Positions 12,507 through 32,000 of a stretch of DNA of 32,000 nt are shown piece after piece. The notes under the pieces are model-generated. The model did not search any database, was not told where the DNA came from, and saw only the letters and a program-made list of their open reading frames with translations. The position numbers were made by a program, and so were the translations under genes. The stretch spans positions 510,001 to 542,000 of the forward strand of contig NZ_CP017260.1 in NCBI RefSeq assembly GCF_001735745.1. Reading direction: 5' to 3'. How positions within the stretch are numbered: the stretch's first letter is position 1; each line of letters starts with the position of its first letter. This DNA comes from Formosa sp. Hel1_33_131. Its GTDB lineage: Bacteria > Bacteroidota > Bacteroidia > Flavobacteriales > Flavobacteriaceae.

Positions 12507-12510
12507 CTAA

Positions 12511-12645: not shown

Positions 12646-12701
12646 CTATTATAGTTTCATATAATCGCATTTAAATTTCTTGATTTAAACACTCCACAGT
12701 T

Positions 12702-13835: not shown

Positions 13836-13845
13836 TGCTGCATTT

Positions 13846-14653: not shown

Positions 14654-15918
14654 TTTAGCACCTCCTTTTTTGAGTTCTTAAACAAGAGTCCTACATATTC
14701 TTTAGGCAATGGATGCACATTGATTTTTCCGTTATAGATATGATTTTGATAAATGGACCCAAATTGATTGGCTATAAAATTTTTGGCAAATACGGTTCCG
14801 TACACAGTTCCTTTGAGTTCTGTATTTTGATTGCAATACAACTCCCCTATCAAAATAGCCGTTTCTTGAAGTTCAATTTGAGTTTTATAATTATTAGGAG
14901 GATCGTTTCCTTGATAAACAACCACCCCTTTCACTACCGAAGACTTCCCTATTTCTATGGAAGGTTTTTCTTTTGTACCAGTGGTGTTTGGTAGGTTTTC
15001 CACTTGATTTTTATTTAAAATTAATGCCGATGGGTAATTTAATTGAACAGAATTACCAACGCTCATTCTCTTTGATGCGAAGGCTTGAAAATTTGAAATG
15101 ACATTATTTCCAATTTCAATCTCGGGGGCAATGAGCACAATATCCTTTAATACGGCCGATGCCAGAACTGTGATTTTGGTTTTGGACTGCACGACAATAT
15201 GCCCTGTCAATTGAACTTCATTAAGAATAACATTAGTCGTTGAGAAATGAATTTGAAGAGGATCAAAAAATGAATTGTTATATGCTTTTCCGGATTCAAT
15301 TGTAATGAATTGAGTATTTGAAATTTCTGAAACGTGAGATTCAATAGATTCTATTTGATCAACAATATCCGTTGCTAAAGGTGGTAATGTAGAAGACTGC
15401 TGGGTGGAACCATAAAGAAGTTGAGAACCCGTATAGGAGTGCCCAGAAATAGTCCCTGCCTTTACGCCTTGTTTGGGTAAAAAAACGACGCCCTCAATTT
15501 TGGTTCTCCCCACCACTACCAACGGCTTGCGTGTATCTTGAAGGTATAAGGCGGTTCGGTTTTGATCCTTGGACTTTGCTCCTATTAAAGCGACTTTTCG
15601 AAACTGATTGGTTTTGATTTTAGAGACTGAAGTGACTCTTTCAAAAATACCCCAAAAATCACGGTGGATTTCTAAGGTCTTAAAGCTTGGTTCTTCAAGT
15701 GGGATTGCCACGGTGTCCTTCAAACGAATGGAATGGAGCAGAGCGTGCTCAATTCCTTTCTGAGCGTTCTGTGTGGTTTCAAGTATGAAGTCTGTTTGGA
15801 CTTGAAATCGTTTATGACTATGAACCAATAAAACAAACCCCATCAATAACACTGCAATAATAATCGAAATAAACAGCGTCAATTGCAAAGCTCCTGATTT
15901 AAGTTTTAAGAGAATCAT
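14641..15918 (-). CDS. Membrane-anchored GspK-like minor pseudopilin candidate with a beta-helix-like C-terminal half
   Basis: 425-aa. The N-terminus MILLKLKSGALQLTLFISIIIAVLLMGF resembles GspK-type leaders (no Glu+5). The C-terminal half has repetitive short-strand segments (VQLTGHIVVQSKTKITVLASAVLKDIVLIAPEIEIGNNV...GTVYGTVFAKNF). The functional call rests on context only. Confidence 0.4.
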   Translation of the reverse strand: MILLKLKSGALQLTLFISIIIAVLLMGFVLLVHSHKRFQVQTDFILETTQNAQKGIEHALLHSIRLKDTVAIPLEEPSFKTLEIHRDFWGIFERVTSVSKIKTNQFRKVALIGAKSKDQNRTALYLQDTRKPLVVVGRTKIEGVVFLPKQGVKAGTISGHSYTGSQLLYGSTQQSSTLPPLATDIVDQIESIESHVSEISNTQFITIESGKAYNNSFFDPLQIHFSTTNVILNEVQLTGHIVVQSKTKITVLASAVLKDIVLIAPEIEIGNNVISNFQAFASKRMSVGNSVQLNYPSALILNKNQVENLPNTTGTKEKPSIEIGKSSVVKGVVVYQGNDPPNNYKTQIELQETAILIGELYCNQNTELKGTVYGTVFAKNFIANQFGSIYQNHIYNGKINVHPLPKEYVGLLFKNSKKEVLKWLY

Positions 15919-16379
15919 TAAGGGCGTTTTATGGTTTGAAGTTGGCGGTTGTAGCGCACTACAATTTCGCTAGAATTACCACGTACAAGCGTCACACTAT
16001 CGACGGTTTGCCCTTTTTTTATTATATACTGTCGGTTGTTTATATTCAACACAAAAACAGGGGTCTTGCTATGTGTTTTTTGTACGATTCCTGCATAGGT
16101 GATTTGTTTGAGGGACATTGGTTTTGGAGGGGGGCGCAAGGGTCTCTTGATTTTTTTAGGAGGTTTTGAAAACGTTCCTAAAAAGGGATCCCGATCTATC
16201 TTTTGGATGGAAAAAGAATCCATTTCGATAGGAGTAATTGGCACAAAGGTTTGGTTTTGGACGGTCTCAACTTCAAGAAGTTCTTTAGACTGTAGTGCAC
16301 TGTTTATTTTAACAGCAATGAGTCCCCAAACAATAAGGACCGCGGTGATTAGGAGGTATGTTTTTTTCTTCTTATTCAA
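15918..16379 (-). CDS. Bitopic membrane protein, PilP/GspC-like
   Basis: 153-aa with an N-terminal TM segment (TYLLITAVLIVWGLIAV) and a Pro/Lys-rich linker (KPPKKIKRPLRPPPKP). The C-terminal small beta domain ITYAGIVQ...VFVLNINNRQYIIKKGQTV..VTLVR resembles PilP/GspC HR domains. Confidence 0.45.
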   Translation of the reverse strand: MNKKKKTYLLITAVLIVWGLIAVKINSALQSKELLEVETVQNQTFVPITPIEMDSFSIQKIDRDPFLGTFSKPPKKIKRPLRPPPKPMSLKQITYAGIVQKTHSKTPVFVLNINNRQYIIKKGQTVDSVTLVRGNSSEIVVRYNRQLQTIKRP

Positions 16380-17028
16380 CAGTGAATTTTTGTGTGGTAT
16401 AGCTGGTTTGAAACGTTGGGTTTAGAGCGCGGACACGCCATTCATAGCTGTTGACGGCTAAGTTTGAAACGCTAAAAGTTGTGGCGACAGTGGTTTCGTT
16501 TTTTATAATTTCAGTGGCATTTTCAAAACTAGGAATAGCGATTTGAAAGGAATAGGTTTCTGCATTTAAAACGGGATCCCATGAAAAATTGATGGTATCT
16601 GTAGCACCAAAACTAACGGCATCCGCAGGCGCTAGCAACACGACGGTTGCTTCAGAAATATCGACATCATCCGTGGATTCCACCAAAAAACTTTGGGTTG
16701 AAAAAGCGGTGGTATATCCCGAATTTTCTGCGCGGATACGCCATTGGTAATCATTTGGCGTTAATTCCTTTGAGAAACTCGAGGTGGTGACCAAAGAATC
16801 CAACACAATTTGTGTGGCTTCGCCAAAAGTTGGTGTTGAAATTTGGAGACGGTACTGGACAGAATCTCTAAGAGATTCCCAAGAAAACGTGACATTCGCA
16901 CTGCTTAAAACACTGTTGTTTGTGGGGGCTAAAGCCGTCACTGTTTTTTGTGAAATATCTTCGACTTGTAGGATGTCTCCACAACTGATTGCTAGTGCTA
17001 AAAGGGTTATTAATTTTAAATTTCTCAT
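16372..17028 (-). CDS. Lipoprotein with two tandem Ig/Fn3-like repeats
   Basis: 218-aa with the lipobox LALAISC. Two ~95-aa repeats share the pattern LAP..a.V.s....FSW.......Y..QI..P.F..AT.I.......t.F.....L..N.Y.WR.RA.N....T....Q.F.VE. Confidence 0.55.
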   Translation of the reverse strand: MRNLKLITLLALAISCGDILQVEDISQKTVTALAPTNNSVLSSANVTFSWESLRDSVQYRLQISTPTFGEATQIVLDSLVTTSSFSKELTPNDYQWRIRAENSGYTTAFSTQSFLVESTDDVDISEATVVLLAPADAVSFGATDTINFSWDPVLNAETYSFQIAIPSFENATEIIKNETTVATTFSVSNLAVNSYEWRVRALNPTFQTSYTTQKFTVE

Positions 17029-17030
17029 CG

Positions 17031-17810
17031 CTAAAAATTTTTGTAGTTAATTTTCTTTTTGGCTTTTTTCGCAACTCGGTGGGTATTGATTGGACAGCGA
17101 TCGTCACTTTCTACGAAATCCACAATTTCAAGTTGACGTTTTCTATTTTCCTTCCAACAGGCCTTTGAGGTTTGATACCCAAACACCACCCCTTCACTGA
17201 GGTGTATTGAATGTTGTTCTTTATTTTGATTATAGGTTTTTAAGACATAATTATTGATTCCTGTATGTTCCAAAAACACTTGCTGCGCAGTGCTTAATTT
17301 AGCAGCGATTTCGGCATCGAAAACCACTGAAATTGTGGATACTAGATGTGCGTTGGTTTTGTTCTGTAAAAACTGAAAAACATCTTTATTTGCCTCACTG
17401 TTTAAGCTCTTCAAAACAGCGATACGGTCAGCAATTTCTAGTTTTAAAAAGCGAGGTTTTGGTTTCACAGAATCCACATACTTTACAACGATGGCCTTGT
17501 TTTGAGCAGATTTGGCGTTTTCAAAGGCCTTTAACTTGGATTTATTAAACGGTACTCCATTTACATGCACTTTAATCGGATGCTGGAATTGTGGGAAGGC
17601 GGTGAAATTATAGTCTTGTTCTAACAAAAAATTCTTATGGACTCCTATGGTACCAAGTTGTAAGTTTTGAGTGGTTATGTTTTGACGCTCTTGCTGAACG
17701 GACAGGGTTCTACAAGCTGTAAAACTTACTATCATTAGTGCGATGCAACTGTATTTGATCATAAGACAGGGGTGTTTGTATTTGAAAAAACGGCGTTTTT
17801 TAAACTCCAT
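17031..17810 (-). CDS. Hypothetical lipoprotein, first gene of the T2SS/T4P-like operon
   Basis: 259-aa ORF. A lipoprotein signal MIKYSCIALMIVSFTAC begins at an internal Met (nt 17762), which may be the true start. I recognise no family. Confidence 0.45.
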   Translation of the reverse strand: MEFKKRRFFKYKHPCLMIKYSCIALMIVSFTACRTLSVQQERQNITTQNLQLGTIGVHKNFLLEQDYNFTAFPQFQHPIKVHVNGVPFNKSKLKAFENAKSAQNKAIVVKYVDSVKPKPRFLKLEIADRIAVLKSLNSEANKDVFQFLQNKTNAHLVSTISVVFDAEIAAKLSTAQQVFLEHTGINNYVLKTYNQNKEQHSIHLSEGVVFGYQTSKACWKENRKRQLEIVDFVESDDRCPINTHRVAKKAKKKINYKNF

Positions 17811-18046: not shown

Positions 18047-18129
18047 GTGCTTACAGCTTGTGAGATATTGCCTTTTTTGGCTGCGAAAGTTATAGACTTC
18101 GTTAGCTAAGATCTTATTCTCTATCCTTT

Positions 18130-18898: not shown

Positions 18899-18949
18899 CA
18901 CATTCCCTTATAAGGGACACTTTAGCGTAAAAGAGCCGTAGAGGTTGCA
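18899..18949 (-). repeat. Module-boundary repeat, copy B (51 bp, contains the palindrome TCCCTTATAAGGGA)
   Basis: CACATTCCCTTATAAGGGACACTTTAGCGTAAAAGAGCCGTAGAGGTTGCA matches copy A (23627-23677) at 47 of 51 positions by hand alignment. It lies 9 nt downstream of the stop of the last immunity-like gene. Confidence 0.8.
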
Positions 18950-18957
18950 CGGAAGTA

Positions 18958-19418: not shown

Positions 19419-19724
19419 TTAGTTTCCGGGTTGATTTGTAACACCTACATTGCTAATGTGGAAATCAACCATTATTTGAGCTACACCTACACCTATTGTT
19501 GGAGCAGAATTTAATTTATAAATTGTTTTTGGCAATGCTGATAAGCCTAAACCAATACCTAAAACTCCAGCCCTAATTCTAGTCTTAATCGGTAAAAGTG
19601 GATTTGAAGCTATTTGTAACTCTTCTGATACAAATTTATAATCTGCGAAAACAATTTTCACTTTTACCTCAACTAATGACTGCCAATCTTTGTCACCACT
19701 AGAAAATTCTAGCGGGAGCGGGGG
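19419..19724 (-). other. 5'-truncated toxin-tip fragment (orphan cassette 3) with Gly-zipper-like hydrophobic segments
   Basis: The frame is open from about 19724. The ORF track begins at a GTG at 19661 and there is no ATG. The translation reads PPLPLEFSSGDKDWQSLVEVKVKIVFADYKFVSEELQIASNPLLPIKTRIRAGVLGIGLGLSALPKTIYKLNSAPTIGVGVAQIMVDFHISNVGVTNQPGN. It starts inside junction repeat F and has no Rhs core. Confidence 0.35.
19682..19721 (-). repeat. Cassette-junction repeat F
   Basis: GCCAATCTTTGTCACCACTAGAAAATTCTAGCGGGAGCGG shares two identical 11-nt blocks (GCCAATCTTTG, TAGCGGGAGCG) plus CCACTA with repeat E. It overlaps the stop codon of the upstream immunity gene. Confidence 0.7.
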
Positions 19725-20382
19725 TTATATCCAAAACAACAATTGGTATTAAAGCATAATCAAAAGATATTTCATTATTAGAAATATAGCTTACTAACAC
19801 TCTGTTGATTTTATTTAATAAATTAATATTTATATTAGAGGAACAAGAAATAGACACAATACCATCTTCATACATATATATGGCATATTTATCACGATTT
19901 CTAGTGCCAGAAAACAAAGGTATATAGACTAACGAATCAGTATTTTTAATTAAATATTGATTAATGTTCTTTTCATTTATATTGTCTATTTGTTCAAAAT
20001 TATTTGAATAGAAACCAATTTTCATATTTTTATTAAGACATCTTTGATTCTTATTATTTGGAAATAACTTTATCTCTGATTTAGGATAATTAAATAAGTT
20101 GTTTTTACTAAATACTAAAAGACTATCGTTTTTATCAATTTTAAAAATATATTTATTATCTCTAATAATATCTATTTCTGCGCAGGTTTGGTGTAAATAT
20201 TTATTTATTTTTTTTTCTAATTCACTATCATTAAAATTCAAATCATAATCTAATGTATAAAAAGACACACACTCTTTTATGATTTCTTTATCAGCTAAAT
20301 TTTCTTTTGAAAAAGAAAAAAATATCCAAACAACAAAGGCTGTAACTGAAATAAAGAAAAGGTAGTAGTATTTTAATCTCAT
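19699..20382 (-). CDS. Putative immunity protein of orphan toxin 2 (N-terminally membrane-anchored)
   Basis: 227-aa with an N-terminal TM segment (YYYLFFISVTAFVVWIFFSF). The gene is very AT-rich and lies 12 nt downstream of the orphan Rhs-CT. I recognise no family. Confidence 0.5.
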   Translation of the reverse strand: MRLKYYYLFFISVTAFVVWIFFSFSKENLADKEIIKECVSFYTLDYDLNFNDSELEKKINKYLHQTCAEIDIIRDNKYIFKIDKNDSLLVFSKNNLFNYPKSEIKLFPNNKNQRCLNKNMKIGFYSNNFEQIDNINEKNINQYLIKNTDSLVYIPLFSGTRNRDKYAIYMYEDGIVSISCSSNININLLNKINRVLVSYISNNEISFDYALIPIVVLDITPAPARIF

Positions 20383-20394: not shown

Positions 20395-21375
20395 TTATTT
20401 CATTATTGAATGTAATGAACTAAAATGCTTATCTGAATGAACTTCAATTATTAGAGTAGGGATTCTGCCTGCGCTGTCAGTAAGACCTCTATCAAAGAAT
20501 ATTGCATTCTCAAATATATCTCCGCCACTACTACTGTAAATTTCATAAGATTTCATAAAGTTAAAAAATCTATTATTTTTACTTAATAACGTTGACAACT
20601 TTCCATTAAATAGAACATTTTCGCCATTGAAATTAAAACCACTTTGAAACCTTATATTTCCAAAGGAATTTGGGAGTTGGTCAATACCTAAGTCAATTTT
20701 AGAGAAAGCTAAACTAATATCTCCATATGGATTATCTCTCAATTCTTGATTTTTGTTAATTTGACTTTGTAGGCCTTGTTCTATTGCTACTGGTATTCTT
20801 CCCGATACATAACTATTCCAATCGAATTTTTGACCATGTCCATCTCCTAAATTCCTATTCCACAAACCTTCAAATCCATCTGTAGTATTAAATCCCCAAT
20901 TTTTTATTACATCAGATTTGGTTGCTCCTCCATATTGTAAGCCAGCAGCAGTTGCTTGTCCTTTAGAAGTTATATCTTCTCGCCAAACCCATGTATCACC
21001 ATCTTTACCTCTTACCCAATCAAACCATTCCCCCCCATCAGGATCTACTCCATTAATCGGATTATTACCCATCCCTAAATACGGAGAGCTATACTGCCCA
21101 GCAGGATCCACAGTCAACCATCTTCCAATCCTACCATCCCAAAGTCTCAACTCAAACGCCTCTTTTCCCGTTTCAGCGTCTTTTTCTTGTCCTTGGAATT
21201 TGTACCTATAATTGCCTTCTATATTGCGGTTAGGCATTGGCATCCCAAATGGATAGTAGTCTGTTTTCGCAGTTAAAGATACAGCATTTTCGCCATTTTT
21301 CATAATCACGGCTCGTACATTTCCTAAATGGTCGGTGAGTTGAACTCGCCAATCTTTGACGCCACTAAGTACAAC
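20395..21375 (-). CDS. Orphan Rhs C-terminal fragment 2: end of the Rhs core plus a 211-aa toxin domain of unknown type
   Basis: The ORF track lists 20395..21309 (GTG start). The frame is open back to the immunity-1 stop at 21376. Translation is VVLSGVKDWRVQLTDHLGNVRAVIMKNGENAVSLTAKTDYYPFGMPMPNRNIEGNYRYKFQGQEKDAETGKEAFELRLWDGRIGRWLTVDPAGQYSSPYLGMGNNPINGVDPDGG followed by a unique C-terminus. It lacks a signal peptide and the YD-repeat shell. Confidence 0.75.
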   Translation of the reverse strand, partial: VVLSGVKDWRVQLTDHLGNVRAVIMKNGENAVSLTAKTDYYPFGMPMPNRNIEGNYRYKFQGQEKDAETGKEAFELRLWDGRIGRWLTVDPAGQYSSPYLGMGNNPINGVDPDGGEWFDWVRGKDGDTWVWREDITSKGQATAAGLQYGGATKSDVIKNWGFNTTDGFEGLWNRNLGDGHGQKFDWNSYVSGRIPVAIEQGLQSQINKNQELRDNPYGDISLAFSKIDLGIDQLPNSFGNIRFQSGFNFNGENVLFNGKLSTLLSKNNRFFNFMKSYEIYSSSGGDIFENAIFFDRGLTDSAGRIPTLIIEVHSDKHFSSLHSIMK

Positions 21376-21388
21376 TTAGCGGGAGCGC
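21348..21388 (-). repeat. Cassette-junction repeat E
   Basis: GCCAATCTTTGACGCCACTAAGTACAACTTAGCGGGAGCGC pairs with repeat F. It spans the stop codon of immunity 1 and the first codons (..LSGVKDWR..) of orphan fragment 2. Confidence 0.7.
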
Positions 21389-21957
21389 AAACTAGCACCA
21401 TCAGGGGCGTATTTCACATGTATAAATATTAAATAATTAATAGAATTTCTAAATACCTCATTTTGAAATTCGTTCATTTCAATTAACCCATATAAAATTT
21501 CTTTTGTTGGGTATCCTTTTTTAAAAATTTCAAAATACTTTTTTCTTATTTTACTTGAAAGTTTAGCTTCGATAGGACAATTATCAAACATGAAATTCAT
21601 AGTAGTAATATCATTGGATATGTAATTAAGAAAACCAGAGTTTTTTATTGTGATTTCTTTAATTAATTCAATTTTATTATGAGTTAATTTTTTGATTAAT
21701 TCATGGTAATCATTCTGATTTTTTCCTAAAAGAATACCTTCATCAATTAATTTGTTTTCAAATACACTAATTGAGTCAGATAAACTGATTTTATTATAAT
21801 TTATAGAATTATATATTGAACTCTTTATGTTTATTCTATTTGTTATCTTAGTATTAATACAATTCTCAAATTCAATAAATGATTTACTATTGTCATTACA
21901 TGAAAATATCATTACCCCTAAAATGAAAAAAATAATATTTTTAATCTTTGAAACCAT
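21376..21957 (-). CDS. Putative immunity lipoprotein of orphan toxin 1
   Basis: 193-aa with the signal and lipobox MVSKIKNIIFFILGVMIFSC. The start overlaps the orphan toxin 3' end by 17 nt and the gene is very AT-rich. Confidence 0.55.
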   Translation of the reverse strand: MVSKIKNIIFFILGVMIFSCNDNSKSFIEFENCINTKITNRINIKSSIYNSINYNKISLSDSISVFENKLIDEGILLGKNQNDYHELIKKLTHNKIELIKEITIKNSGFLNYISNDITTMNFMFDNCPIEAKLSSKIRKKYFEIFKKGYPTKEILYGLIEMNEFQNEVFRNSINYLIFIHVKYAPDGASLRSR

Positions 21958-23482
21958 TGCTTCTCCCTATATAATTATATTTTGGTTTTTTAGTAAATAT
22001 TTGCTGTTGAAATGCATCTTTATTCTTAGTATGAACAGTTAATTGAACAGCACCTGCTAGCTGCCAAACAATCCTACCATTCATCAAATATCCAAATCTA
22101 ATATTGTGATGCGTTATTCTCTTATCTGAGCCAAACATAGTTCCATAATCGTCATCTGGATGTTTCAAAGTATTTCCAAAAACAGCAGGATGGTACTTCA
22201 CATTAAATAAAAAACCTTCAGAAGTATACCACTGAACCGCAAGACTAATATCGACATTTTTTCCATTAATTTCAATTGACCCCTTATAATCAATAGGTGT
22301 TTGAAGTTGATATTTAATACCCCCAAAATAATCAGAAGATAACCACGCATTAGCTCCATCCGAAGCACTGTGCTGTAAAGCAAAGTTAAAATGATCTATA
22401 ACTCTTTGTTGCGTAGCTCTCCCCCCAGTTAATTGTAATCTTAATAAATCAGTCCCGAACATATCATATACGTTTCGACCAGATACAGTAGTAACTCCTG
22501 CTTGAATATTGTTCTCATTCCCATTTAATAAACCCTTTGCTTGATCATATGTAACTCCGTATTGATCAACAAAAGATTGAACAGTATCATTTTCTTCAGC
22601 AACATAAGAAACAGAACCATCAGCATTAACAATAGGTTTCCAAAATGCCCCATCAGGATCCGTTCCATTAATCGGATTATTCCCCATCCCTAAATATGGA
22701 CTCGCATATTGCCCCGCAGGATCCGTCGTCAACCACCGTCCTATTCGACCATCCCAAAGTCTCAACTCAAACGCCTCTTTTCCCGTTTCAGAGTCTTTTT
22801 CTTGTCCTTGGAATTTATACCTATAATTGCCTTCTATATTGCGGTTAGGCATTGGCATCCCAAAGGGATAGTAGTCTGTTTTCGCAGTTAAAGATACAGC
22901 ATTTCCGCCATTTTTCATAATCACCGCACGTACATTTCCTAAATGGTCGGTGAGTTGATAGACATCGCTGTTGGTTTGGCGGTAGTGGACCCCCAAACGG
23001 CTGCTGCCATAAATGGGTTGTTCTTTGAGCACGGTGGGTTGGCGTATTGTGGGTCCAAAGGCACCAGTATAAATGCCCATTGGACTGCCAGAAGCATCCC
23101 GTACATAGTAGGTTAGATAGGTATTCCCTGAACTATAAACTTCTTTACGTACACGCTGCCCCCGATCGTCATAGAAAAAGGCGAGTTTGGAGGCTGTGGG
23201 GACTTGCAGGTTGATGTTGTCTATGGAGATGCGTCCAAAACCAACGCAGTCGCGTTGGACTTCAATAGTAATGGTGGAGGTGGTGGGCGTGAATTCAAAA
23301 CTGTTGTGGGCTGTCAGATAGGGTGCACAGGCAGGGGTGTTTCCTACATTAGAAGTGGCGGTTGGGTTGGGACTGTTATGTGCCGCGGTGCCTAAGATGG
23401 TTCCGTTGGCATCTTTGATGGTGATGATGGCGGGTAAAAGAGCCGTAGAGGTTAGGGGTCCTAGTTTTATATGACAAACCAT
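21941..23482 (-). CDS. Orphan Rhs C-terminal fragment 1: unrelated 5' segment, last part of the Rhs core, and a 234-aa toxin domain of unknown type
   Basis: 513-aa. Residues ~95-275 parallel the end of the main Rhs (FFYDDRGQRVRKEVY..YYVRDASGSPMGIY..YGSSRLGVHYR..YQLTDHLGNVRAVIMKNG...NNPINGTDPDGA). A unique C-terminus follows. There is no signal peptide and no YD shell. Confidence 0.8.
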   Translation of the reverse strand: MVCHIKLGPLTSTALLPAIITIKDANGTILGTAAHNSPNPTATSNVGNTPACAPYLTAHNSFEFTPTTSTITIEVQRDCVGFGRISIDNINLQVPTASKLAFFYDDRGQRVRKEVYSSGNTYLTYYVRDASGSPMGIYTGAFGPTIRQPTVLKEQPIYGSSRLGVHYRQTNSDVYQLTDHLGNVRAVIMKNGGNAVSLTAKTDYYPFGMPMPNRNIEGNYRYKFQGQEKDSETGKEAFELRLWDGRIGRWLTTDPAGQYASPYLGMGNNPINGTDPDGAFWKPIVNADGSVSYVAEENDTVQSFVDQYGVTYDQAKGLLNGNENNIQAGVTTVSGRNVYDMFGTDLLRLQLTGGRATQQRVIDHFNFALQHSASDGANAWLSSDYFGGIKYQLQTPIDYKGSIEINGKNVDISLAVQWYTSEGFLFNVKYHPAVFGNTLKHPDDDYGTMFGSDKRITHHNIRFGYLMNGRIVWQLAGAVQLTVHTKNKDAFQQQIFTKKPKYNYIGRSNGFKD

Positions 23483-23705: not shown

Positions 23706-23945
23706 TTACCAATTATATTTTATTATTAAAGTAGCTAATACAAAAAACAAAACAAACCCTATAAGTGTATTGACTGTTTCACTTTCTATTCCATTGTATT
23801 TTCCACCTTTGCCTTCCCAGATATATTTAAATCCAACCTTTTCTTTTTTAAGAAAAATGTTTTTAGAATTTATTATTACATATCTTAAACTAGCTCCTAA
23901 AAACGAAAAAATATAATGTACAATAAAAATACCTATAACATCCAT
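23706..23945 (-). CDS. Putative immunity protein of the main Rhs toxin (small 2-TM membrane protein)
   Basis: 79-aa with two hydrophobic helices (VIGIFIVHYIFSFLGASL and TLIGFVLFFVLATLII). Its ATG overlaps the Rhs stop codon as TAATG at 23943-23947. Confidence 0.65.
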   Translation of the reverse strand: MDVIGIFIVHYIFSFLGASLRYVIINSKNIFLKKEKVGFKYIWEGKGGKYNGIESETVNTLIGFVLFFVLATLIIKYNW

Positions 23946-26900
23946 TATTTATCTCCATTTAACCAATCATCAACAACACCAATACCTATTTGATAGTATC
24001 CCATATCTCCTTTCATACTTGTGCCAATGTTTTTATGTACCCAATTCATTTTTCTATTAATAAAGCCTCTTATTTTAGGTGCTAATTTAGACAAAGTGCC
24101 CTTAAATTTACTACTGAATTGAGCAGCATTAAGAGATGGTTTTTTTATTCTACCAAATGAGGCTAATGTTAACATTCCATTTATACCTGCATCAATCCCT
24201 TCAGTGCTTCCTCTCACAACACCGTTTCCATTTAAATGTTGTGGTTGATTATTAGGACTCAATAAATCAAAAGATGTTCCAAACACATATACATTATCAA
24301 GAGTATTATAAACTGCCCCTCCGATTTTTGAACTATACGAATCTGATGCATTAAGTTTATTCTCCATTCTACCAAAGAAATTATGCTGTGTACCTCTCAT
24401 CATAGGAACATCAAAACCTTGCCCACTTTCTGTAAATCTCCAGTTACCCCATTGTTGGTTCATATTCCAAGAATCGAGGTCTGCTCCACTTACTGCCATA
24501 AAGGTTCCTGTTAACTCTCCTGGTCCATCACCGCCACCATCATCAAAAGCAAGTCCATATTTCCTTTTTCCAGTTGATACATCACTTGTATAACGCTCCC
24601 CCCTAAATCCATTTCCGACCCATCCCCAAAATCTTCCCCATTTGGTTTTCCAACCACCATCTGGGTCAATACCATTTATTGGGTCGTTACCCATTCCAAC
24701 ATACGGACTCGAAAACTGCCCATAAGGATCCGTCGTCAACCACCGTCCTATCCTGCTATCCCACAATCTAAGTTCAAAAGCCTCTTTTCCCGTTTCAGCG
24801 TCTTTTTCTTGTCCTTGGAATTTGTACCTATAATTGCCCTCAATATTTCGGTTAGGCATTGGCATCCCAAAAGGATAGTAGTCTGTTTTCGCAGTTAAAG
24901 ATACTGCATTTTCGCCATTTTTCATAATCACCGCACGTACATTTCCTAAATGGTCGGTGAGTTGGTAGGCATCTGTTCCTGTCTCGCGGTAGTGGACACC
25001 CAAACGGCTGCTGCCATAGATGGTGTGTTCTGTGAGTATGCTGTTTTCATAAATAGCCATTGGAGTGCCAGCAGCATCGCGTACATAGTAGGTGGTGGTG
25101 GTTCCGGATGGGAGAATACTTTCTTTTTTCATTCGATGGCCTCTGTCGTTATAATAGAACCGGACGCGTGGCGTTCCATTTTTTTGTACTTCTGTGACCA
25201 ATCCACTGGCGTTGTAGGCATATTTTACCTGTTCGTCTTTGTTTTCTATGAGTTGCCCTATGGTGTTGTAAATATAGTTTTCTACGGTGGTTTGGTCTTT
25301 GATGTCTTCGGCATTGGTAGCTATCGTCACCGCATCATCCACACGTTGGAGCTGGTTGGGTTTGTCTGTTTTGTAGGCATAGGTCAACTCATCCATCCTG
25401 TTTGTACCGTTTTCTGTGTTTTTGTTTCGGTTCAGGGTTTGTATGTTCCCATTGGCATCGTAGGTGATGTTGCTGACTTGGTAGTCTGTGGAACCAAAGG
25501 GGTCTGAGTTGTTTGCGGGTACAATTTCGGCTGTAAATACAGAGTTGCCGCTGGCTACTATTTCTGCATTTGGCAAAAAGGTGATGGAATTGGTGGCTTG
25601 TATAGTGGCATTCGGATCTACAGTAAAATCGATAACCTCATCATCTCCTACACGTTGTGTGTTGCCATTGGCATTAAAGGTGGCGCCTGTCAACCAGTTA
25701 TTTCGGTTGTATTCATAGAGGTATTGGAAGGGGGTGTTGCCCAGGGTGTAGTCTGTATTCCAAGCAATGCTTTTGATGTTGCCATTGAATTGGTTGGTGC
25801 CAAAATCTGATACGTCAAAAGCATTGGAGCGTTTGTAATCGCCTTTGTAATAGTTGATACTCATCCCAAAAAGGTCGTTGGCATTTCCGCCGGGGTCGTC
25901 TGCTGCGGCTAAGCTAGGGTGGTTGATGGCTTTGAGTTGGCCTGCTAAATTATAGACGTAGTCTATTTGTTGTATGCCTTCTGCCAATTGCACATTGCGC
26001 AAAGCGCCTGTTTCATAGTAGTTATAGGCGGCATGTGTTGTATAACTCGCCCCATCTTGAGATGTTTCTACCTTGGTTAGACTGTAATCGATAGGATCAT
26101 AGCTGTAGCGGTGTATAAAGGTTTCGGTAGTGCTGTGTTTTTGATAGACTACCTGATTCACTTGGCTGGTAATGTCATCATACACATAATCGATGGTTTT
26201 TATGCCCAAGCCTAGGATGTTTTGCACAATCCATTGTACCCGTCCATAAACATCATAGCTGTAGTAGGTGGTGGATTGGTTGTTCTGAGTTTTGGCAACA
26301 TTTGTAGCTAAAAAGCCGGGATGGTGGTAAGCGGCATTTAATCCTGAAAGCCCCGATAATTCATTGGAGGCAAGAGCATCGTATTCTGTGAAATTTTGTT
26401 CGCTTCGACTGCCTGAAAAATTATTCGCCATATCGCCATTCAAATTGAGGCTGAAAGTGCCTTGGACTACCCCGCTTTCTATGGGTCTGCCCAAAGAGTC
26501 GTAGTTGGTGTAGGAGTATTCATTGGCAATTGCTTGCTTGCTGTTTTGCGAAAAGCGGATTTGCCCATCACTACGGTACACAAAATTAGCGGTGCCCTCG
26601 TCGGGGCTTGTGGTGCTTAGCAACTGTCCAAGTGCATTGTACTCGTAAGTGGACTCTAAGTGGTTTAGGGGTTGTTTTGAACTTATTAAATGCCCAACAT
26701 TGTCATAGGTGTTTAGGCTGTAGTCGTAGTAGTTTTCTTTGTAGGTTACTGCAATTGTTCCTGAAATGTAGGTGTCGGGATTGGTAACGGCCACTCTATA
26801 AAAGCCATTGGGAAGACTGGTGGTAGCTGCTGTTGTTGTGGTTTCTGTTATTAAATTAAAAATAGTGACTGCCGAAGCGTTTATAGAAAATCCAGTAGTG

Positions 26901-28696
26901 CCAGAGGGTACATGGATGTCCACAAAGCCTTGTGCCCCAATGGGGATGGTCATAGCTCTAGAGGTACCACCCCCAGAGCGTGCGGCGGCAAGTGTTTTGC
27001 CGTCGGTGTCTGTAAACACCACATTTTCTATGCCGTGCACATCTCTGACAACGGTTTTCATGATTTTACGGTTATTCGAATCGTATGAGGCACTGTTAAA
27101 AGCATTGGCTTGGGACAATTCTTGACTGGCAGGCATGGAAAAGGTATAGGATTGTAGCCAATCATCATTGTCGTCAATGTCACCATCATTGTCTGTATCT
27201 ACTTTGTTCCCTCCTATGGTTTTTAAGACTGCGCCGGGATTCAGATCGCTGAAAAAAGCTCTTGAAAAGGGATGGTCTGTGATGTCTTGGTAAGGCTCGT
27301 CTGTGTTATTATTGCTATAGTACCAACCTACTGTGTTTTCTTGTATGTTTGTTGAACTAATGTTTGAAAATGAATTCTCATACAGCTGTTTAATATTCCC
27401 TTGGGTTGGTGCAGAAAAGGTGTTAAATGACGGCCTTCCTTGTGGGTCATATTTTGTTTCGGAGAGCCATAGTTTATAGGTTTTAAAACTAAGCGCTTGT
27501 GATTGTGTTGGCTTTCCCAATCGGTTAAAATAATTAAGCGATTGTCCTATCAATTGACCCGATACATCGTAGGAACATTTAGACGTGTAATTAAACGTTT
27601 TGGTTCCCAATTTTTCATCACATGGACAATAGGCTCCTTTGTAGGAAAAATCATCGGAACTGTGATAATCATAGCTGTAATAGAGATGGTTGTTATCTTC
27701 TTGAAAGGGATTGGTTTTTAAAGTGCCTAATGCCAACCAAGCTAAGCTTTTTGGAAACACACTAAAATCCTCTATGCTTAATAAATCTCCATAGGTCAAA
27801 CAAGCAGAGGTCACAAACGGATCTTTTCCAAATACCTCTTTTCCTGTTTTCAGTTTGATGTATTCACTCATAGCAACCACAACTCTGTAATCTTCAATTT
27901 CACTTCCTAGCGTTGTTGATAATACGGTGTTGCCGTCATACACAAATGCAATGGTATTGCCGTCACGTTTCATTGCTATTTTTTTACTAGGGTCAAAAGA
28001 GGATGAGATGTCTTGGGAAGCAAAAGAAACCGCTTGTCTGTTAAAACCAATAAGGTCAATCGTTTCGTTGATAGGGATGTTATCAGGGGTTGTAGTTGGT
28101 GAAATCTCAATACACGTTTTTTTGTCAATGACAAGTCCTAAGGGGAGTTGTATGTCAGAGTTAGAATAAGGGCTTCCTAAATTAAAATTTAAACGGTAAT
28201 TATACCTGTCTTTTATCGCTAATGAATTGTCACCACTTAAAGGAAATGTATCGGAATCAGGAAGCGTACATAATTGATCTTTGTGTACCAAAAAAATACC
28301 CACTTGATAGGATGGTGGAAAATAAAAATAGCCATTATCTCCTGTAAGAGGATACCATCTTTTTTTTAAAATTGGAATTCCACTTATTTCTTCAGACGAT
28401 TGTTTGAAATTTTCTGACTGAAGAAACCTGATGTTCTCCAAACTCATTTCAAAACTCTCATTGTCTTTAGGAATCACTTTTAATGAAAGGATCTTAGTTG
28501 ATTTTGAAGCTTGATTACTAAAATTAATTCCTTCTTGATCTGTAATGATGGACTCATTGTACAGTTGTTCTTCGGAAGTGTTTATTAAAAACTGGGCCGT
28601 ATTAGAATCCCATTGAACAAGGTCTTGTCCAAAAACAGTGTTATGAATCCCCAAAAGGATTAATAACATTAAAATAATTTTTGTTTTAGTTTCCAT
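23945..28696 (-). CDS. Rhs/YD-repeat polymorphic toxin with a Sec signal peptide, DUF6443-like N-terminal region, YD shell, PxxxxDPxG core end and a 235-aa variable C-terminal toxin
   Basis: The ORF track gives 23945..28753. I prefer the internal ATG at 28696, which gives METKTKIILMLLILLGIHNTVFG/QD (a clear signal peptide) and removes the 68-nt overlap with the upstream gene. There are many YD repeats (YDPQGRP, YDNVGHL, YNALGQL, YDSLGRP, YDVYGRV, YDANGNI...). The core end is YQLTDHLGNVRAV...GNDPINGIDPDGG, with DPDGG encoded at 24653-24667. Confidence 0.9.
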   Translation of the reverse strand: METKTKIILMLLILLGIHNTVFGQDLVQWDSNTAQFLINTSEEQLYNESIITDQEGINFSNQASKSTKILSLKVIPKDNESFEMSLENIRFLQSENFKQSSEEISGIPILKKRWYPLTGDNGYFYFPPSYQVGIFLVHKDQLCTLPDSDTFPLSGDNSLAIKDRYNYRLNFNLGSPYSNSDIQLPLGLVIDKKTCIEISPTTTPDNIPINETIDLIGFNRQAVSFASQDISSSFDPSKKIAMKRDGNTIAFVYDGNTVLSTTLGSEIEDYRVVVAMSEYIKLKTGKEVFGKDPFVTSACLTYGDLLSIEDFSVFPKSLAWLALGTLKTNPFQEDNNHLYYSYDYHSSDDFSYKGAYCPCDEKLGTKTFNYTSKCSYDVSGQLIGQSLNYFNRLGKPTQSQALSFKTYKLWLSETKYDPQGRPSFNTFSAPTQGNIKQLYENSFSNISSTNIQENTVGWYYSNNNTDEPYQDITDHPFSRAFFSDLNPGAVLKTIGGNKVDTDNDGDIDDNDDWLQSYTFSMPASQELSQANAFNSASYDSNNRKIMKTVVRDVHGIENVVFTDTDGKTLAAARSGGGTSRAMTIPIGAQGFVDIHVPSGTTGFSINASAVTIFNLITETTTTAATTSLPNGFYRVAVTNPDTYISGTIAVTYKENYYDYSLNTYDNVGHLISSKQPLNHLESTYEYNALGQLLSTTSPDEGTANFVYRSDGQIRFSQNSKQAIANEYSYTNYDSLGRPIESGVVQGTFSLNLNGDMANNFSGSRSEQNFTEYDALASNELSGLSGLNAAYHHPGFLATNVAKTQNNQSTTYYSYDVYGRVQWIVQNILGLGIKTIDYVYDDITSQVNQVVYQKHSTTETFIHRYSYDPIDYSLTKVETSQDGASYTTHAAYNYYETGALRNVQLAEGIQQIDYVYNLAGQLKAINHPSLAAADDPGGNANDLFGMSINYYKGDYKRSNAFDVSDFGTNQFNGNIKSIAWNTDYTLGNTPFQYLYEYNRNNWLTGATFNANGNTQRVGDDEVIDFTVDPNATIQATNSITFLPNAEIVASGNSVFTAEIVPANNSDPFGSTDYQVSNITYDANGNIQTLNRNKNTENGTNRMDELTYAYKTDKPNQLQRVDDAVTIATNAEDIKDQTTVENYIYNTIGQLIENKDEQVKYAYNASGLVTEVQKNGTPRVRFYYNDRGHRMKKESILPSGTTTTYYVRDAAGTPMAIYENSILTEHTIYGSSRLGVHYRETGTDAYQLTDHLGNVRAVIMKNGENAVSLTAKTDYYPFGMPMPNRNIEGNYRYKFQGQEKDAETGKEAFELRLWDSRIGRWLTTDPYGQFSSPYVGMGNDPINGIDPDGGWKTKWGRFWGWVGNGFRGERYTSDVSTGKRKYGLAFDDGGGDGPGELTGTFMAVSGADLDSWNMNQQWGNWRFTESGQGFDVPMMRGTQHNFFGRMENKLNASDSYSSKIGGAVYNTLDNVYVFGTSFDLLSPNNQPQHLNGNGVVRGSTEGIDAGINGMLTLASFGRIKKPSLNAAQFSSKFKGTLSKLAPKIRGFINRKMNWVHKNIGTSMKGDMGYYQIGIGVVDDWLNGDK

Positions 28697-31600
28697 AATT
28701 GTAGTAGTTTTTAGATACTGTTTTAAATCCTCCTGGTACAGAGGGCGTATCAATTATTTCTGAGTAGGTTTTAATAAGTCGTCCAGCGGCATCGTATTCA
28801 AACTTGCTTGCCAAACCATTGGTTCCAATAATGTACCAGAGTTCGTCCCATTCGTTGTAAACATAGCTGGTCATGGAAGAAGCGATGGGGTGTACTCTAA
28901 GATCATCTGCATAAATATTCCCATTATTTGAAGTTATATTGATATATCCACTGGATCCGTTTAAATCCATATAATGATTTAATTGCACCCAATCCCCTGC
29001 CGTTATTTGTTCGCCATTAAAAGGAACGGGGGCACTGCCAAATCCGACCCTCACATTTGCTGCTCTGTCCCTCACATCTACTCCATTGTCTTTTTTGACC
29101 CAAATGGATACTTTGTAAGTTCCGGATCTGTGTTTTCCAGAAACGAAATCAACATGGATGCTGTTGCCAGGGGCTATTTGTATGGACTGGGTTCCTGTGT
29201 GGGCATAGGTACTCACTCTTGAAGCGCCATTGACGAGCTTAATTTGTTGTCCTATAAAATTACTAGCTAATGGATCTTCGGCTCCTGTATAAAAACACTC
29301 TCCATATTTTGCATTTGCAGACATAAACACTTTACTGTTCGCATCTCCCATTTTGGTAGCCGCATAATTCCCATTGATATCTCTAACTTCTAAGGGCATG
29401 GAATAATGATCGTACTGGGTGGTGGTGGATATGTTTTTCCAATCCGCATTGGTTTGAGCGATCTCTGGGCCTACCGTCCAAACGAAATTTTCATCATCGT
29501 GTTCTGGAGTTGAATTTGTAAATCCTTGCAAAGTCCCATCATCGTTTAAACCCCCATCCCATACAAAGGATTTGTGCTTGCGCCAAATCTTAAATTTCCT
29601 TCCAATACCATCATTAGGAGGAGAGGAAACGCCTCCAGAATAGTCCGTATAGAACCAATCATTATTCCAAGTCGTGATCCCTACCCCCGTTTCTTTCCAA
29701 TCACCCGCAATATCTATATAGGTTTTGCTCATCGCTTGTTGACTTAGCATGTTTTTATTGGTAAGGTTATCTACTTTGCTTCCCATACTGTAATCACCTG
29801 AACCATATTCTGGGATGGCGTAAGCAGGCACCAACTCTGTTTTAAAGCGGTTGCCTTTGCTGTCGTCTGTGATGGTTTCTAGGACTTGGCCAGTATTAAA
29901 ATCATATTTACCGTAAACTTCAGTAAAAGTATAGCCTCCACTAGTCTTTCTACTAAATAATAAAGCATTTGGGTTGATTATTTTTGAAGACGAGTTTAAC
30001 AGGTATTGATCGACACTACCTTGTATTTTATTTTTAGTATATGAATAAAAAGTTTCCTGAATTACTCCTTGATTGTTTTCATTAAAATCTCTATAAACAT
30101 TATTTGTCTTAGATAATAATTGGTTAGAAGTATTATAATTAGACACGCTTAATAATCTCCCGATGGCTGATTTATTATCCTTAACGACATATTTTGTAGA
30201 AGAAATTTTAGCATTATTGCCATTAACTGAATATGTACCAGAACTTTCGGTAGGAGTTTTATTTATATATAAAAGACCTAAAGAGTATGAACTATTATCC
30301 GTTTTGACTATAGGTTTAAATGTTTCAAAATTATAAACCGTTTTAGAGCTGACTGTATTGTCTGATCCAATTTTTTCTGTTGTAACATACCCATAAGTCA
30401 CACCAGGAGGGGGCATTTCGGTGACATATTCAATCTCCTTATCAAATTTAGAAGGCGCATAAGATGTTATTCCTGAAGATCTATAACTAGAACTATTTGG
30501 ATCACTACTGTAATTTAAATCATTATAGTAATAATTAGTTTTATAAGATATTGTTCCATCTGTAATAGCAATATCCTTCACCCTAAGCCCACCTCCTTTT
30601 CTGTTTTTTTTAGAATCTTTAGCAAATATTTTAAACAAAAATGTTACGGCTGTATCATCCCTACAAGTATCTGGCAAATCTGGAAATTGACCCCTTAATA
30701 AATTTTGCATTGTATGATCGGAAAAACCAAGCCCCATAGGCCCTGAACTATATAACCAGTTTAGCCCATCATTATAATTATGAGTATGGCTTAATGAAGT
30801 TTCAAAAGTCACCTTAGTATCCGAAACATAGACTACATTAACAAATTCATTCTGTATATCTATACTGCCAGACCTATCTTCACAAAAAGGGTCACGATAC
30901 TCATGTAATAACGCAGCCCATATATCAACTTTAACGGGTGCACCTACTTGAAAATAATCGTTGAAATAATTTAAATCTTTACTATCCGTTTTATTTTCTA
31001 TATCAAATCTTAGTTTCCCTTCATGATTATAAAAATTAAATTGAATTCCATCATTATATGTTCTGAAATTCGTTGCAGCTTCTTGATAAAAATCATCAGG
31101 CTCATATGTAATTTCAAATTTTGAACCTAATGGAGTTGAAATATATTTTAAACTTGAGCTTTCAGGGTAATCAGCCGTGAACCCCCAAGAATCTTCATTA
31201 TCACTATTGTATATTGAAACATCATTTAAGTAACTGAACTCATAAGGTGGAATTAAACTTTCTTGTCCCCTTCCTAAAAAGTTTACATTACTTAAAGTAA
31301 GCTTCCCTTTTTGAGCTAACAATGAATTTGGAGAATTTCGCATCGATGGATAGGTTTCGTCATAATGCATTTCAATGTGATTAATTTTAAAATCATTTAT
31401 ATTGGAAAAATTATTAGCAATATCATTAGAGTTTAATACATTATTATAAAACTCGCCTTTCCACTCCTTTAAGCTTCCATTATTTAATAACGGATAATTT
31501 GCATGATATACTTCTCTATAAGCAGTATCATAAACTCTTATCTCTTCTTCAAAATACATTTCACCAATTTCTTTTCCGTTACTTTCTGATGTATAGGTTT

Positions 31601-32000
31601 TAATATTAGAAGGTACATCTTCATTTTTAAGAACAAAAATTTCTTTTAGCCTCAATGATTTATGTTTATTGATATTAACATATTCTTTATGCCAAATATT
31701 AGAAAAATAGACCCCAGTAGAAATATTCATAGCATGATTATCATATATGCCTTTAACAAAATATGTTGAACCACTATGCCCTAATACTTGTTTGTCTCCA
31801 TAATTATAAACTCGTGGAGAAGTTAAACTCGCTCCAATGTTAATTTCTACTCCATAATTATCATTTCTATCTTCTTTTACAAATAATGCGGTATGTGTTC
31901 TAGTTTTAATCATATCCAAATAATAAATCTCTTTCACCCCCCATCCATAAGATTTTGATTGATCATTCTTGTGATAAGTTAAATCCTTAGTTGGAGTTCT
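28686..32000 (-). CDS. Large beta-rich Rhs-associated protein (5' end outside the window) with degenerate YD repeats and a CBM/jelly-roll-like module near the C-terminus
   Basis: The frame stays open from the listed GTG (31937) to the window edge (RTPTKDLTYHKNDQSKSYGWG-VKEIYY...), so the protein is more than 1104 aa. YD-like repeats occur in the C-terminal third (YGKYDFNTGQVLETITDDSKGNRF, QYDHYSMPLEVRDINGNYAATKM, FEYDAAGRLIKTY). The GTQSIQIAPGNSIHVDF...YKVSIWVKK...GDWVQL...IYADDLRVHP block looks like a carbohydrate-binding jelly roll. The stop codon is 7 nt before the Rhs start. Confidence 0.6.
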   Translation of the reverse strand, partial: RTPTKDLTYHKNDQSKSYGWGVKEIYYLDMIKTRTHTALFVKEDRNDNYGVEINIGASLTSPRVYNYGDKQVLGHSGSTYFVKGIYDNHAMNISTGVYFSNIWHKEYVNINKHKSLRLKEIFVLKNEDVPSNIKTYTSESNGKEIGEMYFEEEIRVYDTAYREVYHANYPLLNNGSLKEWKGEFYNNVLNSNDIANNFSNINDFKINHIEMHYDETYPSMRNSPNSLLAQKGKLTLSNVNFLGRGQESLIPPYEFSYLNDVSIYNSDNEDSWGFTADYPESSSLKYISTPLGSKFEITYEPDDFYQEAATNFRTYNDGIQFNFYNHEGKLRFDIENKTDSKDLNYFNDYFQVGAPVKVDIWAALLHEYRDPFCEDRSGSIDIQNEFVNVVYVSDTKVTFETSLSHTHNYNDGLNWLYSSGPMGLGFSDHTMQNLLRGQFPDLPDTCRDDTAVTFLFKIFAKDSKKNRKGGGLRVKDIAITDGTISYKTNYYYNDLNYSSDPNSSSYRSSGITSYAPSKFDKEIEYVTEMPPPGVTYGYVTTEKIGSDNTVSSKTVYNFETFKPIVKTDNSSYSLGLLYINKTPTESSGTYSVNGNNAKISSTKYVVKDNKSAIGRLLSVSNYNTSNQLLSKTNNVYRDFNENNQGVIQETFYSYTKNKIQGSVDQYLLNSSSKIINPNALLFSRKTSGGYTFTEVYGKYDFNTGQVLETITDDSKGNRFKTELVPAYAIPEYGSGDYSMGSKVDNLTNKNMLSQQAMSKTYIDIAGDWKETGVGITTWNNDWFYTDYSGGVSSPPNDGIGRKFKIWRKHKSFVWDGGLNDDGTLQGFTNSTPEHDDENFVWTVGPEIAQTNADWKNISTTTQYDHYSMPLEVRDINGNYAATKMGDANSKVFMSANAKYGECFYTGAEDPLASNFIGQQIKLVNGASRVSTYAHTGTQSIQIAPGNSIHVDFVSGKHRSGTYKVSIWVKKDNGVDVRDRAANVRVGFGSAPVPFNGEQITAGDWVQLNHYMDLNGSSGYINITSNNGNIYADDLRVHPIASSMTSYVYNEWDELWYIIGTNGLASKFEYDAAGRLIKTYSEIIDTPSVPGGFKTVSKNYYNYGN

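Follow-up and report, generated by a model that had tools for sequence, protein, structure and literature searches.

A Rhs polymorphic toxin and a partner with a predicted TcB-like fold form a conserved Flavobacteriia cassette linked to type II secretion-like genes

We analyzed a 32,000-nucleotide (nt) stretch of the Formosa sp. Hel1_33_131 genome (the window; contig NZ_CP017260.1, positions 510,001 to 542,000), in which two large genes follow one another on the minus strand. The second encodes a Rhs polymorphic toxin; the first, which continues beyond the end of the window, encodes a partner protein whose predicted fold combines a TcB-like YD shell with a carbohydrate-binding module (CBM)-like jelly roll and one terminal canonical YD hairpin. 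The pair belongs to a core cassette consisting of a Skp/OmpH chaperone, a ~200-amino acid (aa) lipoprotein, the partner and the Rhs toxin, and the window contains the distal part of this Flavobacteriia locus. Judged by gene content, the cassette family is linked to a complete type II secretion system (T2SS)-like gene set (GspD, GspE, GspF, GspG-like, minor pseudopilins, GspL/M-like and prepilin-peptidase-like). On balance we lean towards the reading that partner and toxin constitute a Sec-exported, BC-like, TcA-independent Rhs pair, attended in the periplasm by the Skp-like chaperone and exported by the linked T2SS-like machine. The original prediction, made from the letters of the window, had described a two-gene Rhs system and proposed either a TcB/TcC-like arrangement or a surface-binding partner for a contact-dependent toxin. 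This interpretation is partly supported. The two open reading frames (ORFs) it described are present: the partner ORF extends past 32000 and terminates at 28686, and the Rhs ORF covers 28696 to 23945. They have the following features:

28686..32000, continuing beyond 32000, minus strand: partner gene, 3' 1104 codons, with its TAA stop codon at 28688-28686
28880..29300 (approximate), minus strand: jelly-roll/CBM-like module near the partner C-terminus, with Golvesin_C and CBM matches
28710..28874, minus strand: canonical YD hairpins at the partner C-terminus (SMTSYVYNEWDEL...FEYDAAGRLIKTY...), the sole part with sequence similarity to Rhs repeats
28686..28696, minus strand: 11-nt overlap of partner 3' end and Rhs ATG (ATGGAAACTAA)
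23945..28696, minus strand: Rhs polymorphic toxin, 1583 aa from the ATG, with RHS repeats and Rhs core
24656..24880 (aa 1273-1347), minus strand: Rhs-associated core (TIGR03696, E 2.6e-14), ending in ...GNDPINGIDPDGG
23948..24655 (aa 1348-1583), minus strand: variable C-terminal toxin domain without family match
23706..23945, minus strand: 79-aa protein with two hydrophobic segments directly 3' of the toxin, candidate immunity protein

The Rhs start codon had been placed 7 nt after the partner gene. The two genes instead overlap by 11 nt: the junction reads ...AAT T ATG GAA ACT AA A..., with the Rhs ATG at 28696 lying within the last codons of the partner, an arrangement consistent with translational coupling. 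The tight coupling of the two genes itself stood up in a survey of 80 related genome loci, in which each count uses only the loci with enough flank for the respective question. A Rhs gene encoding a signal-peptide-like N-terminus was found directly 3' of the partner in 62 of the 80 loci, and after an inserted tetratricopeptide repeat (TPR) gene in 5 more. The other loci are interrupted by contig ends; thus, Rhs follows the partner in 67/67 evaluable loci, down to a partner identity of about 30%. The gap between the two genes has a median of 10.5 nt and measures 60 nt or less in 57 of 62 pairs, with an overlap in 5 pairs. A single gene split by a frameshift was considered and rejected, as in every locus Rhs begins with a separate signal peptide and the length of the gap or overlap varies. 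Upstream of the partner, the OmpH/Skp chaperone gene (177 aa; PF03938, E 2.6e-27) is present in 62 of 68 loci and the ~200-aa lipoprotein gene (cluster c1) in 69 of 74. Neither Pfam nor NCBIfam contained a family for this lipoprotein or for clusters c11, c13, c14 and c16 (see below).

Several loci contain additional genes in or next to the cassette. An extra ~200-aa exported protein (cluster c13) is encoded between the lipoprotein and partner genes in 12 loci, including the source organism (L001:1341-1871 and L083:3223-3834; L numbers denote individual loci). In the source organism a DUF2059 protein is encoded upstream of the lipoprotein gene, and no Skp/OmpH gene was found within the 1.9-3.8 kb of upstream sequence available. 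Five Flavobacterium-type loci (L011 at 15145-16662, L024, L046, L047 and L071) have an extra gene between partner and Rhs, as does F. psychrophilum; its product of ~500 aa starts with a twin-arginine-like sequence (…TRKDFIK…) and has TPRs at the C-terminus. Tandem arrays of up to ten signal-peptide proteins (250-500 aa), characterized by an NTFPxSGNVGIGT motif and GxxNTxG repeats, recur beside the cassette (L083:3-1860, L006:2343-8715, L082:147-8788 and L074:3272-8644). These proteins match phage tail-fibre and tail-spike PHROGs with E values of 7.5e-24 to 8e-35. In L083 the array is located just upstream of the cassette; arrays also adjoin secretin-anchored loci without a partner gene.

The Rhs protein itself is an ordinary, classic polymorphic toxin. 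It is composed of a signal peptide, a variable N-terminal region (~aa 24-390), a conserved YD-repeat region, the Rhs core and the C-terminal toxin, in this order. The repeats match PF05593 (E 1.8e-7) and TIGR01643 (E 1.9e-8), and the core residues D1313, D1323 and D1344 are invariant among 22 Rhs family members. Conservation in the family extends over a repeat and core stretch of ~960 aa (about aa 390-1347). The PDB sequence closest to the core is that of SGS1 (E 4.8e-16). On inspection by eye, the N-terminus (METKTKIILMLLILLGIHNTVFG, followed by Q) resembles a cleavable Sec signal peptide, as originally described. The 79-aa protein is a plausible candidate for a membrane immunity protein in view of its position; it accompanies an identical Rhs protein on two ENA metagenome contigs (L001 and L002).

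Searches with Pfam and NCBIfam agreed with the original prediction in detecting no PAAR, VgrG, Hcp, Tss or type IX secretion system (T9SS) C-terminal-domain match in Rhs, the partner or any other ORF of the window. Likewise, no type VI secretion system (T6SS) family is present among the conserved neighbours of the cassette. The C-terminus of Rhs is the toxin and that of the partner a YD hairpin, neither of them a T9SS sorting domain. Export by T9SS or T6SS was rejected because no hallmark of either system was found (TIGR04183/PF18962 for type A and TIGR04131 for type B sorting domains; T6SS models).

Completion of the partner gene from sequence upstream of position 32000, proposed in the original prediction, was achieved with contig L001, which encodes a full-length partner of 1694 aa (L001:1876-6960) with its own signal peptide (MKIHPQIKTFSLRFVLLVLTIQMSTA, followed by QG). 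The partner belongs to a family of at least 1,916 unannotated proteins of about 1,650-1,850 aa, mostly from Flavobacteriaceae (genera including Flavivirga, Tenacibaculum, Aquimarina, Flavobacterium, Flagellimonas and Olleya), with at least 256 relatives (loci) in one-genome-per-species contigs. Besides the terminal YD repeat, the partner has no sequence match in Pfam, NCBIfam or the PDB. The RHS_repeat match of this terminal repeat is weak (E 0.007), and it recurs in 22 of 25 homologues (best E 3.3e-5); the repeat also aligns to the YD repeats of RhsP. The further degenerate YD repeats that had been read along the protein were undetectable in the sequence: upon alignment of the partner and Rhs profiles with hhalign, only the last repeat aligned, and the body of the partner showed no detectable kinship to YD repeats. 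Sequence-level YD repeats across the whole partner were therefore dropped, and what speaks for them is the predicted fold. The jelly-roll/CBM-like block was recovered both by sequence (Golvesin_C, E 4e-4 for fragment aa 957-1035; CBM61 2xom, E 0.28) and with Foldseek, which assigned a separate domain to CBM22 (4xup, E 2e-5, TMt 0.56) and also to CBM35 (2w1w).

To predict the partner structure we used AlphaFold2 (AF2). The model of the 1104 residues encoded in the window had a mean predicted local distance difference test score (pLDDT) of 81.2 and a predicted template modelling (TM) score (pTM) of 0.68. The top Foldseek matches of this model in the PDB were mosquito SGS1 (E 8.8e-13), TcdB1 (E 6.2e-12), a teneurin-like protein and YenB (E 2.4e-11), followed by TcdB2-TccC3 and then by T6SS Rhs cores and teneurins. 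The match probability for TcdB1 and YenB was 1.0, with a TMq of 0.20 for TcB chains and SGS1 compared to about 0.08 for T6SS Rhs proteins. Such low absolute TM values point to a fold-class similarity of the predicted partner to TcB, not to a superposable structure. For the N-terminal 624 aa, the fold search returned non-significant likeness to secretin and porin beta-meanders only; we therefore retained the idea that this region may contain an outer-membrane beta-barrel. No beta-propeller match was obtained for either partner model (the N-terminal one being of low confidence), although the searches did retrieve the small CBM domain by itself.

The TcB likeness proposed for the partner thus has support from the predicted structure, and a published HHpred match to YenB (see below) points in the same direction; it does not extend to an SpvB domain, a beta-propeller or a TcA protein, none of which was found. 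Specifically, no Pfam SpvB domain (PF03534) was detected in 25 partners at E<=1. An apparent likeness to the SpvB/TcB N-terminal motif (…TG…S..LPL…P..LSY..G…WVGLGW.L…I.R) was negative in every check and was dropped as evidence. Profiles of the partner N-terminus compared with PDB sequences (over 100 aa, and broadened with the short family described below) retrieved no TcB, and a search for the N-terminal motif in 5.8 billion proteins yielded unannotated Bacteroidota fragments only. Fragments carrying the motif were also seen in Chitinophaga, Saprospiraceae, Mucilaginibacter and Balneola.

Conservation along the partner is highest in mature residues 1-~90 (aa 28-110; L001:1876-2200, outside the window), with a mean column identity of 81% across genera. 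In isolation the segment is unstructured in AF2 (pLDDT about 27), a behavior compatible with folding only against another protein. The following residues (aa ~110-290; L001:2200-2750) are rich in Gly, Ser and Tyr and variable in length, with a prediction of ~12 consecutive long beta-hairpins.

According to the original prediction, export of the toxin was unexplained by the sequence. However, genes at 17810..12702 of the window belong to the same conserved locus type. They are members of the same clusters as the T2SS-like genes around related cassettes and represent the GspF/pseudopilin half:

17031..17810, minus strand: lipoprotein-like protein (cluster c11), first gene of the downstream T2SS-like half-cluster, with blast matches to c11 in 17 loci
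16372..17028, minus strand: exported protein with fn3/Ig-like domains (cluster c12)
15918..16379, minus strand: single-pass membrane protein (cluster c14), for which a GspC-like role is a guess
14641..15918, minus strand: 425-aa protein (cluster c16), conserved in the T2SS-like cluster
14318..14653, minus strand: minor pseudopilin-like protein (cluster c18) with prepilin-type N-terminus
13846..14331, minus strand: minor pseudopilin-like protein (cluster c24)
12702..13835, minus strand: GspF/PilC-type inner-membrane platform protein (cluster c27; PF00482 T2SSF, E 2.7e-44)
12434-12507 and 12561-12646, plus strand: tRNA-Lys(ttt) and tRNA-Leu(gag), between GspF and housekeeping aroK

Recurrent neighbours of the cassette in other loci are the GspE ATPase (PF00437 T2SSE, E 3e-128), the secretin GspD (PF00263, E 6e-41), a 400-aa PilN/GspL-like protein, a 170-aa GspM-like protein, a 133-aa GspG-like pseudopilin with classic prepilin N-terminus, a 160-aa prepilin-peptidase-like membrane protein and a response regulator. 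A second T2SS-like operon has the content seen in the window (lipoprotein, fn3 protein, single-pass membrane protein, 425-aa protein, two minor pseudopilins and GspF). Of 47 fully flanked loci, 28 have T2SS-like genes no more than 10 kb from the cassette, and 21 have at least three of them. Linkage of this kind was seen in at least 12 genera, among them Marinifilum (class Bacteroidia). Gene orders vary: the two halves may flank the cassette divergently, lie entirely upstream in the same orientation (L032, L067) or lie downstream (L005, L082). In some genomes with two cassettes, only one adjoins the machine and the second lies at a distance (Aquimarina mytili, L054/L069; F. amniphilum, L046/L055). 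In a reciprocal test anchored on the secretin, 33 metagenome loci had enough upstream sequence; 4 of these contained a canonical partner and 14 a shorter partner-like gene. These counts (28/47 and 18/33) indicate a strong linkage between cassette and T2SS-like genes, though one that is not obligatory over a 10-kb range.

The shorter partner-like proteins (~1000 aa) have the same N-terminal motif and C-terminal YD repeats and are without the Gly/Ser-rich region or CBM. Their genes lie directly beside a pseudopilin gene, with a weakly Rhs-like gene downstream (for example L135:3914-6901, minus strand, 995 aa; similar genes in L129, L140, L141, L157-L161 and L164). In the window, the two tRNA genes are probably the island boundary. 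Their position exactly between GspF and aroK suggests that the locus as a whole, T2SS-like and Rhs genes included, is an insertion island at tRNA genes, a situation also noted for F. psychrophilum. Between the T2SS-like operon and the region of orphan Rhs modules (see below) is a 1.1-kb segment (17811-18957) with no ORF of 60 aa or more, just short ORF fragments, and a low GC content of about 0.32.

From these linkages we infer that the pair is secreted through the T2SS-like machine. In the proposed mechanism, Sec would export partner and Rhs, and the Skp-like chaperone together with the lipoprotein would keep both proteins in the periplasm. Rhs would then fold into its own cocoon, cleave itself at the core and enclose the toxin, and the partner would dock on it via its C-terminal YD strands, supplying glycan or surface binding. 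The T2SS-like machine would carry the proteins over the outer membrane. Outside the cell the toxin would act on competing bacteria, with possible help in targeting from the tail-fibre-like proteins encoded alongside.

Alternatively, partner and Rhs could each form part of one closed YD shell, as in TcB/TcC, with the toxin in a shared cavity. The best structural matches of the partner, TcB chains and the TcB+TcC-like fusion SGS1, fit this arrangement, as does SGS1 being the closest solved relative of the Rhs core by sequence. Partner and Rhs together comprise 3277 aa, compared to 3364 aa for SGS1, and the terminal canonical hairpin of the partner could prolong the Rhs spiral. However, a stretch of ~960 aa is about the length of the self-closing cocoon in solved T6SS Rhs structures. 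Because the conserved Rhs region matches this length, we favor, by analogy, a self-closing Rhs cocoon with a docked partner over one composite shell. Considering also the partner body without sequence homology to YD repeats and the negative searches for SpvB, beta-propeller and TcA, the shared shell appears somewhat unlikely.

Several observations weigh against export of the pair by the T2SS-like machine or against the TcB likeness of the partner. Size is the chief physical obstacle: with a width of roughly 9-10 nm, a closed Rhs cocoon would match or exceed the lumen that T2SS secretins usually have. In 19 of the 47 fully flanked loci there is no T2SS-like gene within 10 kb, and 15 of the 33 secretin-anchored loci lack a partner-like gene upstream. 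The contigs of the source organism, L001 and L083, stop short of any secretin or ATPase gene. The model underlying the TcB likeness is a prediction with a low global TM (0.20), and the N-terminal 624 residues of the partner were modelled poorly (AF2 pLDDT 52.8). Finally, the signal peptides of both proteins were assigned by eye, from their n-, h- and c-regions and the Q after the predicted cut.

The cluster, resembling T2SS or type IV pili, could also be unrelated to the pair and merely share an island or hot spot with it, both proteins leaving by outer-membrane vesicles, lysis or an unrecognised route. Cassettes without a nearby T2SS-like gene make up 40% of those fully flanked, and the T2SS-like halves abut with no cassette between them in L096, L097 and L110. 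The tRNA genes bordering the locus and the IS200-like genes recurring downstream of Rhs also suit a hot spot. Yet the linkage has been kept across at least 12 genera through several rearrangements, a periplasmic Skp-type chaperone is almost always present, and both proteins have Sec signals, as required of T2SS cargo. We consider mere co-residence unlikely.

It is more improbable still that the partner is part of the secretion apparatus, such as an extracellular secretin cap or adaptor or a pseudopilus-tip protein, with Rhs as the sole cargo. The high conservation of its first ~90 mature residues would be expected of a machine-contacting element, and the shorter family with the same N-terminal motif adjoins a pseudopilin gene in many metagenome loci. 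Moreover, electron cryotomography of F. johnsoniae revealed atypical secretin-like complexes with unexplained extracellular density (Kaplan 2021, PMC8455137). In contrast, genomes can contain several partner genes, each accompanied by a separate set of Rhs, chaperone and lipoprotein genes and often remote from the machine, a pattern typical of cargo, and the CBM-like module and YD-shell fold fit a secreted binding or encapsulating protein. The CBM-like module might also suggest that the partner binds surface glycans on its own and is functionally unconnected to Rhs, but this is highly improbable given the downstream Rhs gene in every evaluable locus, mostly within 60 nt and in some cases overlapping.

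The Rhs locus also bears the marks of toxin exchange. In strain L083, Rhs is 97.6% identical over the first 1348 aa and then continues into a Phage_lysozyme domain as C-terminal toxin instead. Downstream of the main Rhs gene, the window contains two orphan modules with candidate immunity genes:

21941..23482, minus strand: orphan Rhs module 1, 513 aa, comprising shell end, Rhs core (TIGR03696, E 1.1e-14) and a different C-terminal toxin
21376..21957, minus strand: 193-aa ORF 3' of orphan module 1, candidate immunity protein, with a weak match to the ORF after the L041 Rhs
20395..21309, minus strand: orphan Rhs module 2, 304 aa, comprising Rhs core (TIGR03696, E 1.3e-14) and a third C-terminal toxin
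19699..20382, minus strand: 227-aa ORF 3' of orphan module 2, candidate immunity protein by position only

Orphan module 1 shares 53% identity with the C-terminal region of the complete Rhs protein at locus L041. The two orphan modules and the main Rhs gene have a common 300-nt recombination handle, the core-encoding direct repeat D1, present in three copies at 87-91% identity (24657-24956, 22650-22949 and 21035-21334). Core-encoding repeats of this kind are the usual substrate of toxin-swapping recombination. Among 70 Rhs family members, the recognisable C-terminal domains were Phage_lysozyme, Tae4 amidase, LHH/SHH/AHH HNH nucleases, Tox-PL-2, metallopeptidases and PT-HINT, a set that by its domain assignments represents an interbacterial-competition (antibacterial) repertoire. 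A gene resembling IS200/Y1 transposases (~185 aa) recurs shortly downstream of the Rhs-immunity pair in many unrelated genera (L008:20291-20848; likewise L010, L017, L021, L030, L041, L062, L074 and L079). Elsewhere in the window, among the housekeeping genes, 5058-5627 (minus strand) encodes a 189-aa protein resembling dual-specificity phosphatases, with a sub-threshold match to Pfam Tc-R-P ('polymorphic toxin system DSP-PTPase').

Few bacterial weapons are as widespread as Rhs toxins; to our knowledge, diderm bacteria deliver them by T6SS spikes or TcA injectors. If the proposed T2SS-like export is correct, it would constitute a new Rhs delivery pathway, the fourth besides T6SS, Tc/TcA and the Gram-positive Sec/type VII secretion system-type systems, and would provide a cargo for the little-studied T2SS of Bacteroidota. 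It would also raise the question of how a cocoon of >170 kDa, together with a shell protein just as large, passes two outer membranes in the absence of TcA or T6SS. As a broader proposal, which we advance tentatively, Flavobacteriia and more widely Bacteroidota could possess a dedicated toxin-export apparatus consisting of the T2SS-like machine, Skp-type chaperone, lipoprotein and BC-like, TcA-independent Rhs pair, possibly with tail-fibre-like targeting arrays. In a more radical version, the pseudopilus may display the complex of partner and Rhs on the cell surface, allowing contact-dependent killing. The partner family spans marine and freshwater Flavobacteriia, including fish pathogens, and genetically tractable Flavobacterium species make export and delivery of Sec-dependent Rhs toxins in Bacteroidota directly testable.

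Among known systems, the T6SS Rhs effectors (RhsA, RhsP, Tse5, Tse15) share with the window system the YD cocoon, the core autoproteolysis motif, a polymorphic toxin, a downstream immunity gene and orphan modules. Unlike these effectors, the window system has no PAAR, VgrG, Hcp, Tss or EagR-type chaperone, a Sec signal replaces the PAAR/prePAAR N-terminus, and a partner shell protein is present. Mosquito SGS1/SGS4 and the teneurins are likewise YD-shell proteins; SGS1 ranks first in the structural comparison with the partner and in the sequence comparison with the Rhs core. In contrast to the window pair, they are single-chain eukaryotic surface proteins without polymorphic toxin/immunity logic or secretion-system linkage, and the global TM of SGS1 and teneurins to the partner model is only 0.07-0.20.

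The Tc BC sub-complex (YenB/YenC2, TcdB2-TccC3) resembles the pair in being encoded by two adjacent genes, the second specifying a Rhs protein with aspartyl-protease core and hypervariable C-terminal toxin. As in the BC sub-complex, the first protein is toxin-free, and its predicted YD-shell-like fold finds its best PDB matches among TcB chains. The window pair differs in the Sec signal peptides of both proteins, the linked T2SS-like genes and Skp chaperone, the antibacterial toxin set, and a Rhs repeat region probably long enough to close alone; neither SpvB domain nor beta-propeller was detected. A TcA gene was also absent, with no conserved neighbour of >1200 aa besides partner and Rhs in the 80 loci and none in the window.

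The locus type and the YenB/YenC analogy were already noted in 2018 in one species. A ~35-kb island specific to F. psychrophilum CC-ST10 (FPSM_02418-02439) has the same layout (Duchaud 2018, Front Microbiol 9:138, PMC5808330). It encodes GspM, GspL, GspD, GspE, a FlaK-like peptidase and GspG, divergent from OmpH/Skp and a 200-aa lipoprotein, followed by a 1537-aa exported protein with 'partial structural homology with YenB' (4IGL_A, HHpred E 5e-5), a TPR protein, an exported protein, a 1752-aa Rhs homologous to YenC2 (E 4.8e-48) and, at some distance, an fn3 lipoprotein (PMC5808330). A dedicated translocation role was proposed, and the island was framed, by genome annotation in one species, as a possible fish-virulence factor (PMC5808330). 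No experimental follow-up of this island was found in the literature searched; the partner family, the four-gene cassette and the T2SS-like association are without prior experimental characterization, and the partner is without a domain-database model. Compared to the 2018 description, the family-wide cassette, the polymorphic-toxin and orphan-module behavior, the antibacterial repertoire and the tail-fibre-like arrays are features that were unrecognised there.

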